64,000 nt of DNA from an uncultured Candidatus Saccharibacteria bacterium (lineage in GTDB: Bacteria > Patescibacteriota > Minisyncoccia > CAIUEV01 > JAHKAQ01): assembly GCA_964598205.1 (NCBI GenBank), contig CAZRBB010000001.1, positions 28,199 through 92,198 on the forward strand, read 5' to 3'. The position numbers and the translations under genes are program-made. Shown here piece by piece: positions 3,451 to 64,000 of the stretch. Within the stretch, counting starts at the first letter, position 1. Each line of letters opens with the position of its first letter. The notes under the pieces were generated by a model. That model saw nothing but the letters and a program-made list of their open reading frames with translations, was not told the DNA's origin and did no database searches.

Positions 3451-3521
3451 AAAAAAATCGTTTAAGCGAGCGGCGCAGGCTTTAACAAAGAAATGCGCTA
3501 ACAAATTGTCCCCAACAAAAA

Positions 3522-3608
3522 GGAGAGATGGCTGAGCGGCCGAAAGCAGCACACTGCTAATGTGCTGACCCCTTAAAAGGTCCGAGGGTTCGAATCCCTC
3601 TCTCTCCG
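3522..3608 (+). tRNA. tRNA-Ser (anticodon GCT)
   Basis: Cloverleaf folded by hand. Acceptor GGAGAGA/TCTCTCC, a 3-bp D stem, anticodon stem GCACA/TGTGC with loop CTGCTAA, long variable arm (class II), T arm GAGGG-TTCGAAT-CCCTC. CCA is not encoded. Confidence 0.85.
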
Positions 3609-3647
3609 CAAGCAAATCAGAAATATAATGTAAGAAAAATTCCCTCC

Positions 3648-4496
3648 CTACATCCCACACAAATCACCTATCTGAGGTTTCCCAAACTTTGAATAAGCAG
3701 AATTTAAAATTCTTTCCTTAAAATTCCAATTACTTTTCCATTTCCTTAAAATTTCTACGCTGTTGTCGTTAGAATAAATTACCAAATCTCCCGGTTCTGC
3801 CTTGGAAAGTGATTGGCCAATCTGAATATTTTCAGCATGTTTTCCTATTCTAAACTTTATTTTTTCTCCGGCACTTTGGGTAATTTTTTGGTGAATGCTT
3901 TTGGTTTTTAGTGTTGAGTTTTCAAAAAGCGCCAAATTGCCAAATCGATCCACATAAGCCAAGGAACATCCTTTTGGTGGATCGGGAATGGAATCGGGAT
4001 CGGCCTCTTGTAGTTTGAGTCCATGATTGGTAGCTAACAGGCGGGGGACATAGCTTGATCGGTGCTGTTCTTTGTCGCCGTTATAAAGACCATTTCCTTG
4101 ATTCGGAAGAAACCATAGCTTCTTTACGGAATCTTTAACGGCGGAGAGTGCGCTCAAGGGAGTGACCACGATTCTAATTTTTTCTTTGAACTCTGCTAGG
4201 TAAAATGGTTCACCATTGGCATTGGCCTTTGTTCGGGGAGCATTGTTAATAAAAAGACCGGTCGATTCGGCTTCTGGATTATCTCGATGCAAACGCAAGG
4301 CCTCTCTTGCAATGTGGTTGTAATACATTTCGGGAACGCCATAAATATCAAAGTGCTGAAGCCCAGGAAAATCCGAACGAATGGCTTCTGCCAAGCGAGC
4401 GGCAACATCTGGAGATTTTAGGGGATTCCAAACGGCGTGTCCTCCATGACAATCGCTAAGAGAGAAAATACGAGACGGATAATGCAGTTTAGGCAT
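3648..4496 (-). CDS. Conserved hypothetical protein; family not recognised, possibly a phosphoesterase-like fold
   Basis: Long ORF 3648..4589. The N-terminal 31 aa look like a non-native extension, so the Met at 4496 (MPKLHYPS...) is the likely start. Contains an SDCHGG motif. Confidence 0.4.
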   Translation of the reverse strand: MPKLHYPSRIFSLSDCHGGHAVWNPLKSPDVAARLAEAIRSDFPGLQHFDIYGVPEMYYNHIAREALRLHRDNPEAESTGLFINNAPRTKANANGEPFYLAEFKEKIRIVVTPLSALSAVKDSVKKLWFLPNQGNGLYNGDKEQHRSSYVPRLLATNHGLKLQEADPDSIPDPPKGCSLAYVDRFGNLALFENSTLKTKSIHQKITQSAGEKIKFRIGKHAENIQIGQSLSKAEPGDLVIYSNDNSVEILRKWKSNWNFKERILNSAYSKFGKPQIGDLCGM

Positions 4497-7710: not shown

Positions 7711-8337
7711 ATGGGTTTTACTGCGTTTATTGCCGATTACATTACTCAGTTCATTGGATCTACCGGTTATGTAACAGTTTTTTTGGGCATGATCTTGGAA
7801 AGTATGATTTTTCCGATTCCCAGTGAAGCGATTATGCCTTTTGCTGGTTTCCTAATTGCGGAAGGAAAATTTAACTTCCCTTTGGTGATTCTAATAAGCA
7901 CGCTTGGCAGTCTTGCTGGTTCCTTACTTTCTTATTGCATGGGTTATTACGGCGGCCACCCTTTTGTTAATAAATTTGGTAAATATTTTTTAATAGATCA
8001 GGAGGAACTAGACTTTACAGAAAAATTCTTTAAAAAAAATGGTCAAGTTGCCATCTTTATTTGCCGTTTTATCCCTATAATTAGGCATTTAATTTCCCTG
8101 CCAGCCGGCATGGCCAAAATGGATCTTTGGAGATTTTCTGTTCTAACGGTAATTGGTGCTGGTCTTTGGAATACTTTTTTAACGGTTGTTGGTTATCGTT
8201 TGCGCCAGAATTGGGAATTAGTAATAAAATACAGCAAAGTGGTGGACGATTTTATGATCATCTTAATTTTAATCTTGATTGCTCTTTATATTTATCGTCA
8301 TATTCATAAAAAGAGAAAGCTTAAAAAAGCCGAATGA
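7711..8337 (+). CDS. DedA/SNARE-associated family membrane protein
   Basis: Multi-TM protein with the DedA-type reentrant region (FICRFIPIIRHLISLPAGM). The ATG at 7711 is chosen over the long ORF start at 7615. Confidence 0.8.
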   Translation: MGFTAFIADYITQFIGSTGYVTVFLGMILESMIFPIPSEAIMPFAGFLIAEGKFNFPLVILISTLGSLAGSLLSYCMGYYGGHPFVNKFGKYFLIDQEELDFTEKFFKKNGQVAIFICRFIPIIRHLISLPAGMAKMDLWRFSVLTVIGAGLWNTFLTVVGYRLRQNWELVIKYSKVVDDFMIILILILIALYIYRHIHKKRKLKKAE

Positions 8338-47883: not shown

Positions 47884-48852
47884 CTACCAGATTACGCTCA
47901 TGTAGCAATTTTCTACCGCACAGGCATACGAGCACCGGCCGGTGGTGAGACTTGTGGTCAGCTCGCGGGCCTTGATCAATGCTTTTCGAAGCAGCCCATC
48001 AAGCCGTTCCTTTGTCCCGGTCCAGTTGCAAACCCCAACCTGTACCTCTTTGCCAGGGGCCCAATACTTAACCGTTACCAAATCTTGAGCACCTGCATCC
48101 TGCCCATAAATCACGCGGTATTCCTCAAGCCGCTCTTCGCCGATCTTGGTCCAGGCGCTTCCGATAGACGAAGTCTTGGGGCAGTCATCGCCAACGCAAC
48201 CGCCGGTCCTTGGCGCGTAACCAGTGCCCCCACTTCCGCCCGCATGACCGCCAGACCGTACGCCCTTGCCGCCAGATCCTCCGCTTCTTCTGCCTTTAAC
48301 ACCTTCGTCGCAGAGATTGGATTGCTTGGCAATCAGGAGATCCGTTTCGATTTTTTTTGCCAATATCAGGTCGGCCTCAATTTTTTTTGCGGTGATCAGC
48401 TCTGCCTCGATTTTTTTGGTATGGACTGATTCCGCTTCGAGCCGATTCACTTTCAGGCTGGGCTTCCGATTGGCATAGTACGCCTTCCGCAATTCCCGAC
48501 CCTTCTTTATCGCTATTTCCATGTCGTCCCGTGTTGTCGGGTGCCGCAACACCATCCCCGCCGGTAGGTTGTCCACCTGGGAAATGTTGAGCCCAGTATG
48601 CGCGGCAACGACCCACGCATTCCATCCTACTTTGTCGGAGTAACCCATCAGGGTTGCCCCGCTCGGCAGAGTCCCCTCGGCGATTACGCCCAGGGCGTCT
48701 ACAATGTTTTGCGTGTCCCCAGCAATCTTGTCCAGTTTTTCTTCCATGCGATCCAATTGATCGCTGTTCCCCAAGGCCAGAACTTCGGCCGTGGGTGCCC
48801 CTGTCAACGCCAACAAAAAAATCCCCAATACTACCAATGCCAGTTTTTTCAT
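47884..48852 (-). CDS. Secreted LysM-domain protein with 11-aa tandem repeats and a Gly-rich/Cys-rich C-terminal region; GC-rich island gene
   Basis: Signal peptide MKKLALVVLGIFLLALTGAPTA, a LysM-like block (GYSDKVGWNAWVVAAHTGLNISQVDNLPAGMVLRHP), repeats AKKIEA(E/D)LI(T/L), a GGSGG linker and a Cys-rich end. Local GC is visibly higher than the flanks and the third codon positions are GC-rich. Confidence 0.6.
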   Translation of the reverse strand: MKKLALVVLGIFLLALTGAPTAEVLALGNSDQLDRMEEKLDKIAGDTQNIVDALGVIAEGTLPSGATLMGYSDKVGWNAWVVAAHTGLNISQVDNLPAGMVLRHPTTRDDMEIAIKKGRELRKAYYANRKPSLKVNRLEAESVHTKKIEAELITAKKIEADLILAKKIETDLLIAKQSNLCDEGVKGRRSGGSGGKGVRSGGHAGGSGGTGYAPRTGGCVGDDCPKTSSIGSAWTKIGEERLEEYRVIYGQDAGAQDLVTVKYWAPGKEVQVGVCNWTGTKERLDGLLRKALIKARELTTSLTTGRCSYACAVENCYMSVIW

Positions 48853-57555: not shown

Positions 57556-57572
57556 TAAAAATCTTTTCTACT

Positions 57573-57603
57573 AAAACACCCTCGATTTTTCGGGGGTGTT
57601 TTT
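57573..57603 (+). terminator. Intrinsic terminator
   Basis: ACACCCTCG-ATTTTT-CGGGGGTGT hairpin followed by a T run. Confidence 0.6.
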
Positions 57604-57637
57604 ATTTAAGATAGAAAGACCATGATTGGAGAATAAA

Positions 57638-57781
57638 GCTAAGAGGGCGTGCCTGTTTTGTTGAGGCTTTTTCATTCGAGTGGGCCGGTTTTCCGAAGGA
57701 AAGAGCTCGAATGAAAACTGAGCAAGCGGAGCCGCTGGGCGAAGCGAAGCGTACTCAACAAAACAGGCACGCCCTCTTAGC
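57638..57781. ncRNA. Candidate structured RNA element, copy 2 of 2; unclassified family
   Basis: 28-bp perfect outer inverted repeat with a different sequence from copy 1; an inner 12-bp stem, a short hairpin and the same conserved core AAAACTGAGCAAGCGGAGCCGCTGGGCGAAGCGAAGCGTACTC. Confidence 0.4.
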
Positions 57782-57788
57782 TTCTGGT

Positions 57789-58760
57789 CTAAACAATAAA
57801 ACAGGTTAAATTTGGTTGTCCCCGAAAAAAATCGTTGGCTGGCATTGGCTTTTTCCCTTCTGGCTGAACAATTTCGGTGAGCAGTTGACCATTTCTGGTT
57901 ACCACAAAACTGAAAGGATTATTTTTATTCGGCTTTAGAATTGTTCCTGGTGGTAGGCCATTACTTGGAGTACTGTCTTTTGCGGTTTTGGTCCGGATAA
58001 TATTCAATCGTTTCTTTTCTTTTTTAGAATCCAAAAAGAAAGTGTAAGTTTTGGGCCAAGGATTTAGGGCTCTAATCTGGGCGTCTATTTCGGCGCTGTC
58101 TTTTTGCCAATCAATTAGTCCGTCTTCCTTTTTAATAAGCTTAGTATAGGTCGCCTTTTCTTCCTCTTGTTTTTTAGGTTTTATTTTTCCTTCGCAATAA
58201 GAGAGGATTGTCTCCATTAACATTTTAGCGCCTAATTCTGAAAGTTCGTTGTGCAGTTTTTCAAAGGTAATTTCAGGAGAAAGACTAACTGATTTTTGAT
58301 TCAAAATATCTCCAGCGTCCATTCGAGAATCAAGCTTTATAATAGTGACTCCCGTTTCTTTATCTTGGTTAAAAATAGCGGCTTGAATTGGCGCCGGTCC
58401 TCGGTATTTAGGCAAAAGAGATGGATGAATATTTAAACAGCCCCAACGAGGAATTTTTAAAACCGCTTCTGGCAAGATTATTCCATAACTGGCCACCACA
58501 ATTAAATCTGGTTTTTCTTTTTTAACTTGTTCTAAGGAACAGGCTTCTTTAAAATTCTCTGGCCAAAAAAGCGGAGTCTTAGGGTAATTTTTAAGTACAA
58601 AATTTTTAACTTCCGAACAAGTTAATTTTAAACCTCTTCCACAAAGACAGTCGGGGCAAGTGCAAACAGAAACAGAATAAAGAGGGCTATTTAAAAGTTC
58701 CTTTAAGGTGGGCACCGCAAAAGCGGAAGTGCCCATAAAAATTATTTTTAATTTTGGCAT
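57789..58760 (-). CDS. fmt: Methionyl-tRNA formyltransferase
   Basis: KIIFMGTSAFAVPTL N-terminus and HPSLLPKYRGPAPIQ motif; overlaps the def stop. Confidence 0.9.
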   Translation of the reverse strand: MPKLKIIFMGTSAFAVPTLKELLNSPLYSVSVCTCPDCLCGRGLKLTCSEVKNFVLKNYPKTPLFWPENFKEACSLEQVKKEKPDLIVVASYGIILPEAVLKIPRWGCLNIHPSLLPKYRGPAPIQAAIFNQDKETGVTIIKLDSRMDAGDILNQKSVSLSPEITFEKLHNELSELGAKMLMETILSYCEGKIKPKKQEEEKATYTKLIKKEDGLIDWQKDSAEIDAQIRALNPWPKTYTFFLDSKKEKKRLNIIRTKTAKDSTPSNGLPPGTILKPNKNNPFSFVVTRNGQLLTEIVQPEGKKPMPANDFFRGQPNLTCFIV

Positions 58761-59203
58761 CGGTCGGGGAGTAAAATTCCTTCTAAGTGATCGAATTCGT
58801 GTTGAATGGCGCGGGCCAAAAGACCTTTGGCTTTTAATCTTTGTTTTTTACCGGTTTCGTCTTGGTATTTTATGGTTACTTTTTTGCTTCTTTCCACCTG
58901 CCGAAACATCCCTGGGAAAGAAAGGCAACCTTCTTCCATGGACTCTTTGTCTCGAGACAAATTTTTAATTTCTGGATTAATAAAAACATAAAGCTGATAA
59001 TCAAGCTCAATAATAAAAAGTCGAAAAAAGTAACCCACCTGGGGCGCCGCCAAACCAATGCCATTATTTAAATGCAGGGTCTTGGCCATTTGCTTAACCA
59101 GTGCCTTGGTTTCTGGGCTTTCTGGTCTAAGAATGGGTTGGGATTTGTTCCGCAAAAGCGGGTCGGTCCCTGGAATTATTTTTAAACCTTCAGTATTAAA
59201 CAT
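58748..59203 (-). CDS. def: Peptide deformylase
   Basis: GIGLAAPQVG, EGCLSFPG and QHEFDHLEG metal-binding motifs. Confidence 0.9.
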   Translation of the reverse strand: MFNTEGLKIIPGTDPLLRNKSQPILRPESPETKALVKQMAKTLHLNNGIGLAAPQVGYFFRLFIIELDYQLYVFINPEIKNLSRDKESMEEGCLSFPGMFRQVERSKKVTIKYQDETGKKQRLKAKGLLARAIQHEFDHLEGILLPDRCQN

Positions 59204-59385
59204 TTTTTTGATTCAACTTCTCTTGATTATTTAAAAAAATAACAAAAGAAGCAAGTAAATCGGCAAACTACATTGCTTTTTAGGCTAATTTGTGCTGTAA
59301 TCCTTGGTTCAAAGAACATTACCAATTGCCAAAAAATCACAACAACCGCGTACCACAAAGGGTGTAAACATGCAAACAAAGGGAG

Positions 59386-60243
59386 GTGCTTATGCAGATG
59401 AACAAAGTTAACGAGGCAGGGGATCTGGTTATTGCCAAGGAGTCGGCCGACTACTCGTATCTTTTTGGCCGAAATAGCCAGTACGAGGTTCGCGCCTACA
59501 TTGGCGACGAAACATACAACATTATTAACAATGTAGGGGGGATTGGCGATCAGGTCTCCGAAGTCTATGTTCGAAGTTTTAGTGATGGCAAGTACTGGAA
59601 CGAAAGCTGGACTCCTCAAAAGGCCTCGGCAGAAATCAATCAAGCTCTGCTCTGGGATAACCAGAAGCGCATTCCGGTAGCCGCGCTCTTAATTTACCAC
59701 GGAGACGATCCGGAGATGGCGCACCTCAAAGAAAAGGTCATCGGTCTTTCCTGGGGAGTCCTTTTGGAGAATCTGGAAGCCTTAGACCAAAAACGGGATT
59801 TTCCGTTCAGTCTTCCGAAAAACTCCAAGAAATTCGGAAAAAAATTGTTTACCGCCTGGGCCCGCAATTTCTACCAGGAAGAAAGGGTGTTGGTGTACCG
59901 CGAGGTCGCCGTCCACCCCGACGCCCGGAAAAAGGGCAACCCGTTCATTGCCCACTTGGCGTACCCGATCGTTGGCCGTGCCTGGGAGCTTGGTTATCCG
60001 GTACTCATGTATTGGACCAACCGAAAATCCCCCAGCGTCGGCCTTGGTCTGGGCCTCGGCTGGTTGCCCATCTATTTTTGGGGCGATCCGGCCGATCACC
60101 TATTGATAGCCGGGCATACCAAGCCGTCTTCCGAAACCATGTTGACTTGTCTAGACAAGGACAAGTCAGTGGTAAAGGCCGGCTGGGAAACAGTAATTTC
60201 CCGTGCCATTGATTTTTCTGAAAGACACCCCCAACCGAAATAG
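59386..60243 (+). CDS. Hypothetical protein on a GC-rich island; possibly an acyltransferase-like core (unverified)
   Basis: 285-aa ORF whose DNA is visibly more GC-rich than its neighbours. No confident motif, only a weak GNAT-like stretch (VYREVAVHPDARKKGNPF). Confidence 0.45.
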   Translation: MLMQMNKVNEAGDLVIAKESADYSYLFGRNSQYEVRAYIGDETYNIINNVGGIGDQVSEVYVRSFSDGKYWNESWTPQKASAEINQALLWDNQKRIPVAALLIYHGDDPEMAHLKEKVIGLSWGVLLENLEALDQKRDFPFSLPKNSKKFGKKLFTAWARNFYQEERVLVYREVAVHPDARKKGNPFIAHLAYPIVGRAWELGYPVLMYWTNRKSPSVGLGLGLGWLPIYFWGDPADHLLIAGHTKPSSETMLTCLDKDKSVVKAGWETVISRAIDFSERHPQPK

Positions 60244-60393
60244 AGGATCGGCGCGGGGCCGTATGCCGTATAAAGAAAAGAGCGAGTTATTCTTTTGGTG
60301 CTAACAACCAAAGGTAGCCTCGTTCTTTTTTATTTTTTAAAAATGTTTTATACTAACAAAAATACTACATCGTCTTATTCTTATTTCTTGAAA

Positions 60394-61239
60394 ATGAACG
60401 GAAGAAATATTGCCGAAATTTCCCGCCAAGCAGTCGCCGAAAGACCAGATTACCTAGAAGGATTTTTTACCGGCGCTAAAAGTCGGAACTATTTTTTAGG
60501 GATTAACTACGCTTCGGCGGTGGTAAATAAAAAATTCTCTCATCCTGGATCAGCTCTCTTAGATTGCATCAACGCTTTTGATTTGGCAGAAGTTGCTCAA
60601 GCTAATATTGGCCAAATAAATATGATCAAAGTCTCTTCTTTTTGTGGCCCAGACGGAATTATTTGGGGTTACGATGTTGCCCAAGTGCCTAAAGAAATTA
60701 ATCACTGGGGAATTGATCCAGTAGGAGATACTGATGGTAATAAAATTCCAATTTATGACGCCGATCCCCTAAGAGAAGCTTTTAAAAAACTAACTGGCAC
60801 CGTTTCTAAAAAACGGTTTCCTTTTTTACCAGCAGCCCATGTTCCGTGTGCGGCCAAATTTGTTACCGTTCTTGAACCAGGCTTTATTTTTTCGGCGGTA
60901 GGTATTGGTATTCCAGTAGAAAGAGATAAAGCAGCTTGCCTTATTATGGAAGATATTGGCAGTCTTTCCTTGGAAGAATTAGGAACTTATGGCAGCAACT
61001 ATCAGGAAGTCGTTGTGAATAATTTAGCCAAAAGCATTGTTCAAATTGGAAAGAATCAACAAGTAAAGTTTAAAGAAATTTTTGCTGGTATTTCAGAGGC
61101 TAAAGTAGAAAAAGAGCAAGCTGGCTGTTCTTTAGTGGCCATGCCTTATTTTGTTTTAGCCAAAAATGCTTATCCCAAGGATCAGGACTTAGACAAATTA
61201 AGCTTAAGCGAGTGGGAAAAATCAATCTTCAAGATTTAA
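60394..61239 (+). CDS. hdcA: Pyruvoyl-dependent histidine decarboxylase (HdcA) proenzyme homolog
   Basis: IGQINMIKVSSFCG (an IGQINM...SSF block with the Ser-Ser self-cleavage site), PIYDADPL, APGFIF...CAAKFVT and AKSI blocks match the Lactobacillus pyruvoyl HDC as I recall it. Start taken at Met 60394. Confidence 0.6.
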   Translation: MNGRNIAEISRQAVAERPDYLEGFFTGAKSRNYFLGINYASAVVNKKFSHPGSALLDCINAFDLAEVAQANIGQINMIKVSSFCGPDGIIWGYDVAQVPKEINHWGIDPVGDTDGNKIPIYDADPLREAFKKLTGTVSKKRFPFLPAAHVPCAAKFVTVLEPGFIFSAVGIGIPVERDKAACLIMEDIGSLSLEELGTYGSNYQEVVVNNLAKSIVQIGKNQQVKFKEIFAGISEAKVEKEQAGCSLVAMPYFVLAKNAYPKDQDLDKLSLSEWEKSIFKI

Positions 61240-61254: not shown

Positions 61255-63435
61255 ATGGAAATTATTTATCCCGTTGTTTATTTTATCTCTGTTTTTATTT
61301 GCGGATCGTTAGCCTTCTTGGTTCTTCTAAGAGACAGAAAATCAAAATTAAATCGTTCTTTTTTCTGGCTTTCACTCTCTATTGCTGGCTGGATTCTCTC
61401 CCTCTACTTTTTCTATTTTCTTCATGATGGCAATGTTTTACCGTTGGGCAGGCTTAATTTTGCTTTTACAGAACTAATTGCTGTTTTTATTTTTTATTTT
61501 GCCTTCCGATTCCCCAAGGAATCGTTCAAAATAAGAAAATCGCTAAATGTCCTTATATTTTTATGGACGGTTTTTTTGGTAGGGATAACTCTTTTTACCG
61601 ATTTAATAGACAAAGAAGAAATCATTAATAATGGAGCCATTAAAACAATCTATGGATCCTTTTATTTTTTGTTCGTGGTGCACTTTTTCCTTTTTTTTAT
61701 TCTTTTTTCGATCTTCTCCTTATTAAAATACAAGAATTTAGAAAACTTAGAGCGTTATCAGGCAAAGTATTTTATTTTAGGAGCTTTTGCCGCCATTATC
61801 CCAGCAACAATTACCAACATTGTCTTACCTCTTTTCTTTGACTACTTTGACGCTCAATACTGGGGACCATTTTTCACTCTTCTTTTTACTGGGGCAGTTA
61901 CTTATTCCATTATTGCCCACCGTTTTATGAATATTCAAATAATTCTAAGAAGCGGTTCGGTTTACTTTCTTTCTTTTCTTACCTTGATTTTCTTTTCTTG
62001 GATTTTTAAATATTTTTTAGGGTTTTTGCTTTTAGAAAATAATTTTTGGAGTTGGAGTGATTTTTTAGTAACAGTGGTGGCCATCTTAGTCTTCTATCCC
62101 ATTAGGAATTACTATTTTAAGATTACCAATAAGTATTTCTTTTCCTCTCTTTATAACAGTAGCCAAGTTATTTATGACCTAAGTAAAAAAATAAGCTCCA
62201 CATTAAACGATAACGAAATCTATAAGTTAGTTTGTTCTACCCTAGACGAAGCCTTTCATGTTGACGGGATTGCCATTTTAAAATACAAAAAAAACCATTC
62301 TTTTCTTAGGGTTAAAAGGAGCGAAAGCCTAGCTTTTAAAAATAACAGCCTAACACTAGAAGAGAGTCTCTATGAAGAATATTTTAGAAAGGGAAAATTA
62401 GTTTTTACGGAAGACTTAGCAAAGAATAAAAAACTAAAAGAATCTTTTGGCAATCTTAGGGCAAGTAAAATTGCAATAGTGGTTCCTCTTAATGTTGGCG
62501 AAAATCCAGTAGGAATAATTACCATTGGGTCCAAAGAATCCAGAGATCCTTACAACAAAGAAGACTTAGAAATGTTAGAAGTAATTAGTGCCCAAGTGGC
62601 AATCGCTATTCAGAACGCTATTTCTTATAAAGAAATCAAGGAATTTTCTAAAAAAATGGAAAGAGAAGTTAAAAAAGCCACCAAAGAATTAACTTCTACC
62701 AACAAGAAATTAAGGAAAATAGACAAAGCCAAGTCCGAATTTATTTCTATCGCTTCGCATCAGTTAAGAACTCCATTGACTTCTATTAAGGGATTCACCT
62801 CTCTCTTAATAGACGGTTCTTATGGCGATATTTCCCCTGAACAAAAACAAGTTTTAGAAAAAGTTTATATTTCCAATGAACGATTAATTATGTTGGTAGA
62901 AGACTTGCTCAATGTTTCTCGGATCGAAAGAGGTAAATTAGACTATGAGTTTCAAGAAATAAAAATGGTTGATTTAATAGAAAGCGTGATCAAGATTATG
63001 AACATTCAGGCCAAAGAAAGAAACCTTTTCCTTAAATTCGAAAACAAGGCGCCAGTAAATTTTACAATAGAAGCTGATTACAGAAAGTTAGTCGAAATAA
63101 TTGGCAATTTAGTGGATAATGCCATTAAATATACTGAAAAAGGAGGAGTAACGGTTGTTTTAAATAAGCAAAAAGATTCATCGGTATTAATAGAAGTCAT
63201 GGATACTGGGGTGGGTATTAAAAGAACAGAGATTCCTAAGCTGTTTGAAAAGTTCAGTCGTGGAGAAGGGATTCATCGGCTTTATGCTGGAGGAACTGGA
63301 TTGGGGCTGTATGTGGTTAAAAAAATGACAGAAGCCCATGGAGGAAAGGTTTGGATTAAAAGCGCTGGAGAAGGCAAGGGGAGTTCATTTTTATTGGAAC
63401 TGCCTTTGCATCAAAAAAAAATTGACCAAACATAA
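61255..63435 (+). CDS. Sensor histidine kinase with an N-terminal 7-TM-like domain, GAF domain, HisKA and HATPase_c
   Basis: About 8 TM helices, a GAF-like region, an H-box FISIASHQLRTPLTSIKGF, and ATPase N/G boxes (DNAIKYT, GGTGLGLYVVKKM). Confidence 0.8.
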   Translation: MEIIYPVVYFISVFICGSLAFLVLLRDRKSKLNRSFFWLSLSIAGWILSLYFFYFLHDGNVLPLGRLNFAFTELIAVFIFYFAFRFPKESFKIRKSLNVLIFLWTVFLVGITLFTDLIDKEEIINNGAIKTIYGSFYFLFVVHFFLFFILFSIFSLLKYKNLENLERYQAKYFILGAFAAIIPATITNIVLPLFFDYFDAQYWGPFFTLLFTGAVTYSIIAHRFMNIQIILRSGSVYFLSFLTLIFFSWIFKYFLGFLLLENNFWSWSDFLVTVVAILVFYPIRNYYFKITNKYFFSSLYNSSQVIYDLSKKISSTLNDNEIYKLVCSTLDEAFHVDGIAILKYKKNHSFLRVKRSESLAFKNNSLTLEESLYEEYFRKGKLVFTEDLAKNKKLKESFGNLRASKIAIVVPLNVGENPVGIITIGSKESRDPYNKEDLEMLEVISAQVAIAIQNAISYKEIKEFSKKMEREVKKATKELTSTNKKLRKIDKAKSEFISIASHQLRTPLTSIKGFTSLLIDGSYGDISPEQKQVLEKVYISNERLIMLVEDLLNVSRIERGKLDYEFQEIKMVDLIESVIKIMNIQAKERNLFLKFENKAPVNFTIEADYRKLVEIIGNLVDNAIKYTEKGGVTVVLNKQKDSSVLIEVMDTGVGIKRTEIPKLFEKFSRGEGIHRLYAGGTGLGLYVVKKMTEAHGGKVWIKSAGEGKGSSFLLELPLHQKKIDQT

Positions 63436-63521: not shown

Positions 63522-64000
63522 ATGAAAATTGTTTTTAGAATTTATAATTGGGGATGTAAAAAGGAGCGAGAACTAGAAGAAAACATTGAAGAAGGCAAAG
63601 ATTATGTGATTAGTAATAATTTTGGCAAATTCATTGCATTCGTCGAAAAGGTGGAAAAAAAAATTGCTAAAAAGGATTCTGAGCTTTGTATTTCCGAAGA
63701 AAAAACCGAATGCCCGGCATTTTGCAAAGAAGATTATTTTAAAATTATTCGCCTAGCAGAAGAAAAAGATTTAGCGGCTGCCAAGGAATTAAGAAAAGAA
63801 GAAATATCTATTTTGGAAAAAAGTCGGCTAAAGGTAAAAGAACATAATCTGCCAATGAAGTTAGTCGGAGCGAATATTAGCTTGGACGGCGGTAGTGTAG
63901 TGGTGGCCTTTACTGCAGAAAATAAGGTGGATTTTCGGGATTTGGTGCGCGATTTGGCGCGGACGGTACAAAAGGCAGTCCGCTTGGAACAAATAGGATC
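63522..64000 (+). CDS. PSP1/RicT (YaaT)-like protein; partial, continues beyond the window
   Basis: Open frame from ATG at 63522 to the window end; the C-terminal portion (NLPMKLVGANISLDGGSVVVAFTAENKVDFRDLVRDLARTVQKAVRLEQIG) matches the PSP1 C-terminal domain. Confidence 0.5.
   Translation, partial: MKIVFRIYNWGCKKERELEENIEEGKDYVISNNFGKFIAFVEKVEKKIAKKDSELCISEEKTECPAFCKEDYFKIIRLAEEKDLAAAKELRKEEISILEKSRLKVKEHNLPMKLVGANISLDGGSVVVAFTAENKVDFRDLVRDLARTVQKAVRLEQIG

Follow-up and report, generated by a model that had tools for sequence, protein, structure and literature searches.

Two co-oriented genes, X and H, form together with a downstream 7TM sensor gene a conserved three-gene cassette in the 64,000-nucleotide stretch of DNA that was analysed, hereafter the window. 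ORF X (59392..60243, plus strand) encodes 283 residues and is confidently predicted to adopt the GNAT fold, H (60394..61239, plus strand) is a divergent pyruvoyl-type histidine-decarboxylase-like gene of 281 codons counted from ATG 60394, and the third gene (61255..63435, plus strand) encodes a sensor histidine kinase of 726 residues. We read X as an obligate GNAT-fold partner of H, and the two together with the 7TM kinase as a cassette for amine synthesis, N-acylation, and sensing, a reading to which we give a probability of about 0.45. The analysis itself shows the GNAT fold and foreign composition of X, the synteny, and the conservation of catalytic residues in H; acyl transfer, the substrate, and the sensing step are inferred.

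The partnership of X and H is reflected in their gene order. When related loci are searched from H, an X homologue, with an identity of no more than 20–39%, lies directly upstream and co-oriented in 21 of 21 distinct loci, and searches from X find H directly downstream in seven of eight, the exception being L015, where X occurs without H behind it. Across loci the two genes often overlap by 4–13 nt, and their pairwise identities co-vary (r = 0.76). The original prediction had raised the possibility that X is functionally coupled to the hdcA-like gene and had proposed to look for their co-occurrence in related genomes; the counts support this coupling strongly. A HisKA_7TM receptor directly follows H in 14 of 18 assessable loci, with X–H pairs lacking an adjacent 7TM gene at L016, L023, L034, and L036. 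The output part of this receptor varies between loci and can be HK, GAF-HK, PP2C/SpoIIE, or absent in a stand-alone 7TM protein. Labelled relatives include Patescibacteria, a Rickettsiales MAG, Porticoccaceae, Polyangiales, and Promineifilaceae, and the labelled homologues suggest that the window itself is of patescibacterial origin. H has at least 134 homologues. A literature search for the X–H–receptor cassette found nothing relevant.

The flank upstream of X has no part in this arrangement. The minus-strand genes fmt (57789..58760) and def (58748..59203), identified by Formyl_trans_N/C and Pep_deformylase, have host composition (GC3 0.30 and 0.39), and at every other locus the genes upstream of X are different ones; they are flanking genes outside the cassette. 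Between def and X lies an AT-rich divergent intergenic region (59204..59391), whose plus strand shows no consensus promoter. It contains the Shine–Dalgarno sequence AGGGAGG (59380-59386), and the start of X is probably ATG 59392, which sits 5 nt past this element and two codons past GTG 59386; all gene callers give the 283-residue product.

H belongs to PF02329, which it matches with E = 1.2e-38 (133 bits, the cut-off being 25), and it is related to the alpha chain of PDB entries 1PYA/1HQ6 (E = 1.6e-12, or 4e-19 with a profile). Translation and alignment A2 place the predicted self-cleavage and pyruvoyl-forming site at Ser81-Ser82, encoded at 60634..60639 on the plus strand, within a VSSFCGP motif that is invariant across the alignment. 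Aligned to the L. saerimneri 30a HDC (1PYA, 1IBT), H keeps Ile59, Asp63, Glu66, Lys155, Glu197, and Asp198. The ligand and catalytic residues of HDC and their roles were taken from PMC8465708, apart from the role of Glu197, which is general background. H thus resembles Firmicutes HdcA in its family, its serine pair, and in Ile59, Asp63, Glu197, and Asp198, and differs from it in that Tyr62 is replaced by Phe and that its TIGR00541 score of 122.7 bits falls short of the 346.65 bits set as equivalog cut-off.

The surroundings of H differ as well. In canonical pyruvoyl hdc clusters of Firmicutes, hdcA is accompanied by varying sets of an antiporter, hdcB, and hisRS (PMC8465708). The window locus instead has a GNAT-like gene upstream and a 7TM receptor downstream, and an antiporter, an amino-acid transporter, HdcB, and hisRS were not found there; nor do antiporter, hdcB, or hisRS genes occur among those bordering X–H–receptor in loci with gene calls. 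The absence of antiporter, HdcB, and hisRS from the window locus argues against a classical acid-resistance cycle, and the missing antiporter, the GNAT partner, and the 7TM receptor together suggest a role for H other than an acid-resistance or histamine-secretion cycle. Members of this clade are automatically annotated as 'histidine decarboxylase, pyruvoyl type', and such labels may mislead surveys of histamine producers.

X and H are separated in the window by an AT-rich spacer of 150 nt (60244..60393, plus strand), which the alternative H starts TTG 60295 and GTG 60298 would shorten to roughly 51–54 nt. A terminator after X in this spacer was considered and rejected (fold z = 0.68), and a promoter scan gave no good sigma-70 match. 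The equivalent spacer of L035 holds both a terminator and a TTGAAT-17-TATAAT promoter, whereas that of the window has neither. Rfam models gave no match above threshold across 57-64 kb.

X is a member of a previously undescribed and unnamed family ('hypothetical protein') that has no Pfam or NCBIfam model. X itself matches nothing in Pfam, NCBIfam, PHROG, or the PDB sequences. The small family, with identities of 25–39%, is recovered by exhaustive HMMER searches only: a word-indexed protein search returns X alone when started from X, and just eight proteins when started from the X alignment. Related loci were consequently sought with the H alignment as probe, the X alignment being unsuitable. 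The X alignment contains no conserved stretch of 7–10 columns. Among curated GNAT models run against 38 family members the best was Acetyltransf_1 with a non-significant E = 0.055 (three members), and a profile search of the PDB with the family returned only a phosphinothricin acetyltransferase at E = 1.4, in the motif A region.

Structure prediction gives a clearer picture. The AF2 model built from the family alignment (pLDDT 90, pTM 0.88), which was used instead of the single-sequence model (pLDDT 36), shows the element order of a GNAT protein, beta1-alpha1-alpha2-beta2-beta3-beta4-alpha3-beta5-alpha4-beta6-beta7. Foldseek finds 83 matches to this model in the PDB at E <= 1e-3, and all 50 that were listed are GNAT-fold acyltransferases, with a probability of 1.00 for dozens of GNAT structures. 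At the top stand the mosquito aaNAT2 (4fd6), a spermine NAT (5yag), the Drosophila Dat (6k80), AgmNAT (7ciw), PaiA, and SpeG. The likeness is one of fold only, with TM values of 0.45–0.6 and 9–15% identity. The original prediction had found no confident family for X beyond a weak acyltransferase-like stretch and had proposed an AlphaFold/Foldseek comparison: the missing family assignment was borne out by the database searches, and the hint of an acyltransferase proved right at the level of the fold, with amine N-acetyltransferases leading the matches.

Conservation across 54 sequences of the family points to the same region of the fold, with the conserved residues predicted to fall on canonical GNAT active-site elements. 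Twelve of 13 near-invariant family residues are kept in the window X, in which F119 has become L. The acidic residues E71, D136, and E171 are conserved. The alpha1-alpha2 loop carries a conserved aromatic cluster (Y59, F63, W69, W73) next to E71 (87%), E171 on beta4 and W208-T209 on beta5 are each conserved to 93%, and R179, with which motif A begins, to 78%. Motif A itself is only partial in the window X, where it reads R179-K-K-G182-N-P184 against the canonical Q/R-x-x-G-x-G/A, the loop between beta4 and alpha3 that binds the pyrophosphate of acyl-CoA. The corresponding loop is R-N-Y-G-R-Y-G in the family member P0002 and R-G-K-L-A-S-like, with the glycines missing, in most others.

The amine N-acyltransferases aaNAT2, Dat, AgmNAT, PaiA, and SpeG share the GNAT fold with X over about 210–220 residues (Foldseek E = 1e-5 to 4e-4), and their acceptor is an amine, that is, a decarboxylated amino acid, as we propose for X. 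In the insect AANAT and AgmNAT a glutamate near alpha1 serves as general base, and these enzymes accept C2–C10 acyl-CoAs (PMC5647378); the conserved E71 in the alpha1-alpha2 loop of X parallels this glutamate. Together with E171 and the aromatic pocket at canonical positions of the model, it suggests that X may transfer an acyl group to an amine. In contrast to these enzymes, X carries between beta3 and beta4 an insertion with a DMPF motif specific to its family and a long helix, and it has two extra C-terminal helices; unlike the insect enzymes it is bacterial and genetically tied into a decarboxylase–receptor cassette. Its low identity to the known enzymes also sets it apart, and the degenerate motif A, the lack of a significant Pfam GNAT match, and the restriction of the structural likeness to the fold all speak against our preferred reading.

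The third gene of the cassette encodes a kinase identified by its Pfam GAF, HisKA, and HATPase domains and by homology to HisKA_7TM. It consists of a 7TM module (about residues 1-250), GAF (about 320-453), HisKA (492-560), and HATPase_c (608-719). A Pfam scan of this protein gave no direct match to PF16927, which among cassette receptors is matched directly in L012, L010, L025, and L035. Its N-terminus is nevertheless 33% identical (E = 1e-37) to that of the L012 kinase, which itself matches PF16927, its L035 orthologue is 34% identical and carries PF16927, and a custom 7TM HMM scores it at E = 7.5e-85. By these sequence comparisons the N-terminal module is homologous to HisKA_7TM. In L035 a response regulator is encoded next to the orthologous kinase. 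To our knowledge, neither a ligand nor partner enzymes of HisKA_7TM are known.

How might the three proteins work together? H would first cleave itself at Ser81-Ser82 to form the pyruvoyl cofactor and would then turn histidine, or another basic amino acid close to it, into an amine by decarboxylation. With acyl-CoA or acyl-ACP as possible donors, X would acylate the primary amine formed in this way and so generate an N-acyl amine. Decarboxylation would have to precede acylation, because pyruvoyl decarboxylases need a free alpha-amino group for the Schiff base. The receptor encoded next to them could sense the N-acyl amine or the free amine with its HisKA_7TM module, which is embedded in the membrane, and pass the signal to an output that would vary by lineage, a histidine kinase or a PP2C phosphatase. 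The cassette would then be a self-contained amine-signal synthase with its receptor, following a logic like that of CqsA/CqsS. From general knowledge, that system likewise places a biosynthetic enzyme beside a polytopic membrane sensor, whose TM region would in our case bind a lipophilic ligand derived from an amine. The two systems use unrelated protein families, CqsA being PLP-dependent.

A more far-reaching version of this idea is that X, H, and HisKA_7TM constitute a previously undescribed aminergic signalling module, in which an N-acyl amine such as N-acyl histamine acts as autoinducer or inter-species cue and is sensed by a cognate receptor with interchangeable outputs. We regard this as possible, if on balance unlikely. 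Were it true, it would add a new system of communication by small molecules, which Patescibacteria possess and which also occurs, in scattered fashion, in Proteobacteria, Myxococcota, and Chloroflexota. In the ultra-small Patescibacteria an amine signal could serve communication with the host cell. X may also be exchanged between lineages, as the allele of foreign composition would illustrate, and such exchange perhaps shifts the specificity of the signal. Whatever the signal, the co-encoded two-enzyme pathway offers a candidate ligand class and thereby a direct route to de-orphanise HisKA_7TM, and for the X family the fold and the strict genomic partnership now give a testable function.

The main rival to an acyltransferase is a maturation factor in the manner of PanZ or HdcB. 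Here X would assist or regulate the maturation of the H proenzyme, its GNAT fold serving as a binding scaffold that promotes or gates serinolysis at Ser81-Ser82 without any acyl transfer; we hold this to be rather unlikely. PanZ (PanM) provides a precedent, as a GNAT-fold, CoA-dependent activator tied to PanD, a pyruvoyl decarboxylase that self-cleaves at a serine (PMC3496974, PMC3473359, PMC4410942). Pyruvoyl HDC is matured by HdcB, whose gene lies near hdcA (PMC8465708), and PrdA by PrdH (PMC11229817), both factors being unrelated to PanZ. No HdcB-like gene was found in the cassette, and a motif A that is degenerate in most X members would suit a protein acting as a scaffold. The strict one-to-one adjacency of X and H, their frequent start/stop overlap, and the co-variation of their identities would be equally expected for a maturation factor and count to that extent against our preferred reading. 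Against the comparison with PanZ stands the lack of any detectable relationship, as hhalign of the X family (A1) with E. coli PanZ (b3459) gives a probability of 0.13% and E = 0.43. PanZ is also absent from the top 50 Foldseek matches listed, which are led by amine acetyltransferases. With 127 residues it has half the size of X, and it is encoded in the order livK-panZ-livJ with no panD nearby. PanD, moreover, has a fold different from that of HDC. Finally, the conserved residues of X would lie, as judged from their secondary-structure positions, in the canonical acceptor and catalytic cleft and not on an obvious outer surface.

We consider it clearly improbable that X and H are an ordinary metabolic or detoxification pair, in which H makes histamine, X acetylates it to neutralise it, and the kinase regulates the operon by pH or histidine, with no signal molecule of its own. 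Biogenic amines are commonly acetylated, most of the enzymes structurally closest to X (SSAT/SpeG, PaiA, AANAT) serve catabolism or inactivation, and four loci do without the receptor. The window locus, however, has neither of the transporter types of canonical decarboxylation cycles, and a 7TM module that stays constant while the output changes between HK, PP2C, and none is typical of ligand–receptor pairing and not of promoter-level regulation. An amine made only to be inactivated would also bring no evident benefit to reduced genomes such as L035 (1.2-Mb contig).

In composition X stands apart from the host genes. The GC-rich island (59380..60280, no strand assigned) is exactly gene-sized, with about 51% GC against a background of 38% in 60-nt steps. 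ORF X alone reaches 51.5%, where the window averages 38.2% (z = 3.9 among all 852-nt windows), and only island 1 at about 47.4-48.9 kb is equally high elsewhere in the window. GC3 values fall within 0.25–0.41 in 46 of 48 window genes (about 0.33 for the window), whereas X and the gene of island 1 both stand at 0.61. Their RSCU correlations with the host gene set are 0.00 and -0.05, compared to 0.49–0.87 for 13 size-matched host genes. Antisense ORFs of 138, 105, and 71 aa lie on the minus strand of X and one of 66 aa in another plus frame, an expected by-product of stop-poor, GC-rich DNA. The GC enrichment and the antisense ORFs reported at first sight are thus confirmed, and the enrichment holds up in the compositional analysis that had been proposed as a check. 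The assembly chimera that had been named as a possible refutation is ruled out: the island DNA is found at 100% identity, with both junctions spanned, in four independent assemblies (JGI 3300044987, 3300045131, and 3300044984, and Logan run SRR35365923). Another Logan run, SRR21799891, reaches no further than the island. Contig L005 diverges at its 3' end, at the border of the island, because an Illumina adapter is present there.

That X is an unrelated foreign gene which landed by chance beside hdcA, or an assembly artefact, is already refuted by the synteny and the independent assemblies and has hardly any probability left, for all its foreign composition and codon usage and the second island of equal GC3 in the same window, given that homologues of X fill the same slot in all 21 loci, including the closest relative L035, and that the island shows no mobility genes (its neighbours are def and H), no tRNA within 18 kb, and no flanking direct or inverted repeats beyond short, AT-rich matches at chance level.

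The original prediction had seen in the island an independent single-gene insertion. The foreign composition and codon usage are real, but the reading as an insertion is misleading, because the slot always holds an X gene; an X acquired from outside took the place of a homologue already resident there and added no gene. The foreign-composition X is therefore best read as a xenologous replacement of a resident X rather than a new insertion, with a high-GC donor being plausible. In L035 H is 60% identical to that of the window and X 26%, where the regression of X on H identities predicts about 40%, a deviation of roughly 1.8 SD. Over the family the window X is no significant outlier in this regression (mean residual -1.7, SD 7.6). 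The tree of H joins the window and L035 with 100% bootstrap, while that of X gives 36% for the window with L012 and 11.5% for the window with L035. Replacement is unproven, because the phylogeny of X is poorly supported.

Outside the window, recombinases adjoin the X–H pair in the lineages of L014 and L016. Nor does X exceed its host in GC as a general rule, since at most loci it has host GC; strong outliers are found only in the window and L013, and mild ones in L031, L016, and L035.

The GC-rich ORF 59392..60243 (+), here called X together with its family, is followed in the window by a divergent pyruvoyl histidine decarboxylase (HDC)-like gene (H, 60394..61239, +) and a 726-aa 7TM-GAF-HisKA-HATPase_c sensor kinase, the receptor (61255..63435, +). 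Loci were sampled with five X homologues (24–36% identity) plus the window and, independently, with the H-protein alignment as probe, which yielded two genome loci, 15 metagenome loci and the nearest relatives by H; all DNA fetched was then scanned with HMMs for X, H and the receptor's 7TM region. X lies immediately upstream of H on the same strand in 21 of 21 distinct H loci, commonly with a 4–13 nt overlap or a 3–10 nt gap, which strongly supports the possibility raised in the original prediction that X is functionally coupled to the hdcA homologue. Seen from X, H is the next gene in seven of the eight loci with downstream sequence, the exception being a locus with a convergent RecQ-like helicase in its place (L015). 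Pairwise identities of X and H correlate across loci (r = 0.76), with X diverging faster (mean identity about 22–33% versus 40–49% for H). The labelled relatives belong to Patescibacteria/Parcubacteria, a Rickettsiales MAG, Porticoccaceae, Polyangiales and Promineifilaceae. In one locus (L024 3192..4928) H is preceded by two X paralogues in tandem. A serine recombinase/resolvase adjoins the pair in L014 (565..1608) and L016 (6053..6640), which hints that X–H sometimes travels on mobile DNA.

Of the 18 loci whose downstream DNA is long enough to judge, 14 have a HisKA_7TM-type module at the start of the gene after X–H; the pair stands without a receptor in L016, L023, L034 and L036. The 7TM module is joined to HisKA-HATPase in L006 and, twice, in Parcubacterium SG8_24 (L012), to GAF-HisKA-HATPase in the window and in L035, its closest relative by H, and to PP2C/SpoIIE in L010, where 7TM-PP2C genes stand on both sides of X–H (L010/L027, L010 484..6557). 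Besides its downstream receptor, L025 encodes upstream of X a stand-alone 225-aa HisKA_7TM protein without an output domain (3493..4170). PF16927 gave no direct match to the window kinase, whose N-terminus shares 33% identity (E = 1e-37) with the PF16927-matching N-terminus from SG8_24. A sensor module that stays constant while its output domains are exchanged, as seen here for the 7TM module, is classically the mark of a ligand–receptor pairing. The receptor kinase is directly followed by a 145-aa protein in L035 (11155..11592, a response regulator by Pfam) and L020 (3173..3607, response regulator-like by sequence); in the window a PSP1-domain protein follows (63522..64000), with no response regulator adjacent. 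A full-text literature search found no account of the X family or the cassette. New are this family, the context of the H clade and the three-gene architecture, the component superfamilies being already known.

What might the two enzymes do? H matches PF02329 (E = 1e-38) but reaches only 122.7 bits with TIGR00541, the HdcA equivalog model, far below its cut-off of 346.65. Relative to the Lactobacillus saerimneri 30a enzyme it keeps Ser81-Ser82 (VSSFCGP, window 60634–60639), Ile59, Asp63, Glu66, Lys155, Glu197 and Asp198, while Tyr62 is Phe; functional roles in HDC are described for Ser81/82, Ile59, Tyr62/Asp63 and Asp198 (PMC8465708). Since the serine pair and most key residues are kept, H is probably an active pyruvoyl decarboxylase with a histidine-like pocket. 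In canonical clusters hdcA is accompanied by an antiporter, and often by hdcB and hisRS as well (PMC8465708); all three are absent from the window locus. Six clade members (P0051, P0075, P0084, P0131, P0140, P0142) bear the NCBI label 'histidine decarboxylase, pyruvoyl type', and many others the JGI label 'histidine decarboxylase'.

For X, the lack of a confident family held up, with zero matches in Pfam, NCBIfam, PHROGs and PDB sequences, and a word-indexed search of 5.8 billion proteins with X alone returned only X itself. An exhaustive phmmer search of 1.84 billion cluster representatives found 42 relatives at E ≤ 1e-3, 27 of them at E ≤ 1e-10, mostly of 225–290 aa and 25–39% identity, and further, more divergent members were found beside H genes; the existing annotation is 'hypothetical protein'. 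The family alignment has the hallmark motifs CY..VFNESWxExWT, VxGFAWG, DMPF, YRExG, YWT and GWxPI. Window X retains 12 of 13 near-invariant residues (F119 is L) and therefore looks functional. With this alignment AlphaFold reaches pLDDT 90 and pTM 0.88 (pLDDT 36 without it), and the best 50 of the 83 Foldseek matches to the PDB at E ≤ 1e-3 are all GNAT-fold acyltransferases, led by mosquito arylalkylamine and spermine N-acetyltransferases and Drosophila dopamine and agmatine N-acetyltransferases, then PaiA, SpeG and generic GNATs. The weak acyltransferase-like stretch noticed earlier thus finds its counterpart in a predicted GNAT fold, with which faint sequence signals are consistent (Acetyltransf_1, E = 0.055; motif A region of 2jlm, E = 1.4). 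The modelled order is beta1-alpha1-alpha2-beta2-beta3-[DMPF and long helix]-beta4-alpha3-beta5-alpha4-beta6-beta7 plus two C-terminal helices. Conserved residues map to elements that build the GNAT acceptor/catalytic cleft: an aromatic cluster and E71 in the alpha1-alpha2 loop, E171 in beta4, W208-T209 in beta5 and R179 at the head of motif A. This motif is degenerate, reading R-K-K-G-N-P in the window and having no glycines there in most members.

By established chemistry, a pyruvoyl decarboxylase has to make a Schiff base through its substrate's free alpha-amino group, so an acyltransferase partner would have to come second and acylate the primary amine that decarboxylation yields. In the most economical model, to which we tentatively assign a probability of about 0.45, H would turn an amino acid into an amine, X would convert this into an N-acyl amine, and the membrane 7TM module encoded beside them would detect either this product or the free amine. 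A serious though less likely rival is that X matures or gates the H proenzyme: maturation factors exist for three pyruvoyl enzymes (PanZ, HdcB and PrdH) and PanZ has a GNAT fold, but hhalign detects no relationship between X and PanZ, PanZ is missing from the top structural matches, and the placement of the conserved residues in a catalytic cleft also speaks against it. The acyltransferase and maturation roles are mutually compatible. That X–H is a plain detoxification pair is less likely still, and chance insertion of X beside H is essentially excluded.

X and H are translationally coupled in most other lineages. In the window, the 150-nt AT-rich spacer (60244..60393) has neither a terminator (fold z = 0.68) nor a good match to sigma-70; without a terminator, read-through from X to H is possible. 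In L035 the corresponding spacer (7866..8000) contains a clean intrinsic terminator, formed by GGGCGGTAAA...TTTACCGCC with a T run after it, and a promoter close to consensus (TTGAAT and TATAAT, 17 nt apart), so the two genes may be separately transcribed in this sub-lineage. Further upstream in the window, between a 90-aa ORF and fmt, lies a non-coding gap of about 230 nt with raised GC (57556..57788, ~0.45), for which Rfam gave sub-threshold matches only (BSnc120, 32.7 bits; gathering score 114).

The predicted ORF is a real gene, although its proposed start, GTG 59386, lies two codons upstream of the likelier ATG 59392, which stands 5 nt after the SD AGGGAGG and gives 283 aa. Its GC enrichment is confirmed (51.5% versus 38.2% for the window; z = 3.9 among all windows of equal length), with a gene-sized rise from ~59380 to ~60280 in 60-nt steps. 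GC3 is 0.25–0.41 in 46 of 48 window genes and 0.61 in X and in the gene of the other GC-rich island (island 1); against the host genes taken together, codon usage (RSCU) correlates at 0.00 in X and at -0.05 in island 1, compared with 0.49–0.87 for 13 size-matched host genes. The antisense ORFs are present, trivially because the DNA is poor in stops. An assembly chimera is ruled out: four 100% identical contigs cross both junctions (JGI metagenomes 3300044987, 3300045131 and 3300044984; Logan run SRR35365923). A fifth, SRR21799891_404655 from Logan run SRR21799891, covers the island alone; its seemingly divergent end (L005 929..951), right at the island border, is Illumina adapter AGATCGGAAGAGCGTCGTGTAGG, an assembly artefact.

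X matches host GC in most lineages. Strongly GC-rich outliers are window X and P0002 (L013 1..954, JGI 3300021172), mildly GC-rich ones L031, L016 and L035. P0002, the best phmmer match (39% identity over matched stretches, 33% by BLASTP), has 55.8% GC and GC3 0.67 against 37% GC in 261 nt of flank; it comes with its own SD and is followed by a terminator-like hairpin, and its contig ends before any partner gene could be seen. L035 shares 60% identity in H (100% bootstrap) and the X-H-7TM/GAF/HK layout, and its X is 26% identical to window X where the X-versus-H regression predicts ~40% (~1.8 SD off). In the NJ tree, window X groups with X of the 61%-GC SG8_24 at only 36% bootstrap and with that of L035 at 11.5%, and codon-usage correlation with SG8_24 genes is +0.46 for window X and -0.54 for window host genes. 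Together, the identity shortfall, the SG8_24 pairing and the codon usage fit, and do not prove, a xenologous exchange in which a GC-richer lineage carrying this cassette supplied the present X in place of the resident one. Of the predicted insertion from a high-GC donor, the foreign composition stands, with codon usage nearer SG8_24; such a donor is plausible, and replacement is a better reading than insertion. No mobility signatures were found flanking the X island. The island-1 gene (47884..48852, -) has no Pfam match and no significant PHROG match; it encodes a 322-aa, secreted-looking repeat protein, unrelated to X despite equal GC3, whose N-terminus resembles a signal peptide and which carries tandem KKIE(A/T)(E/D)L-type repeats and a Gly-rich stretch.
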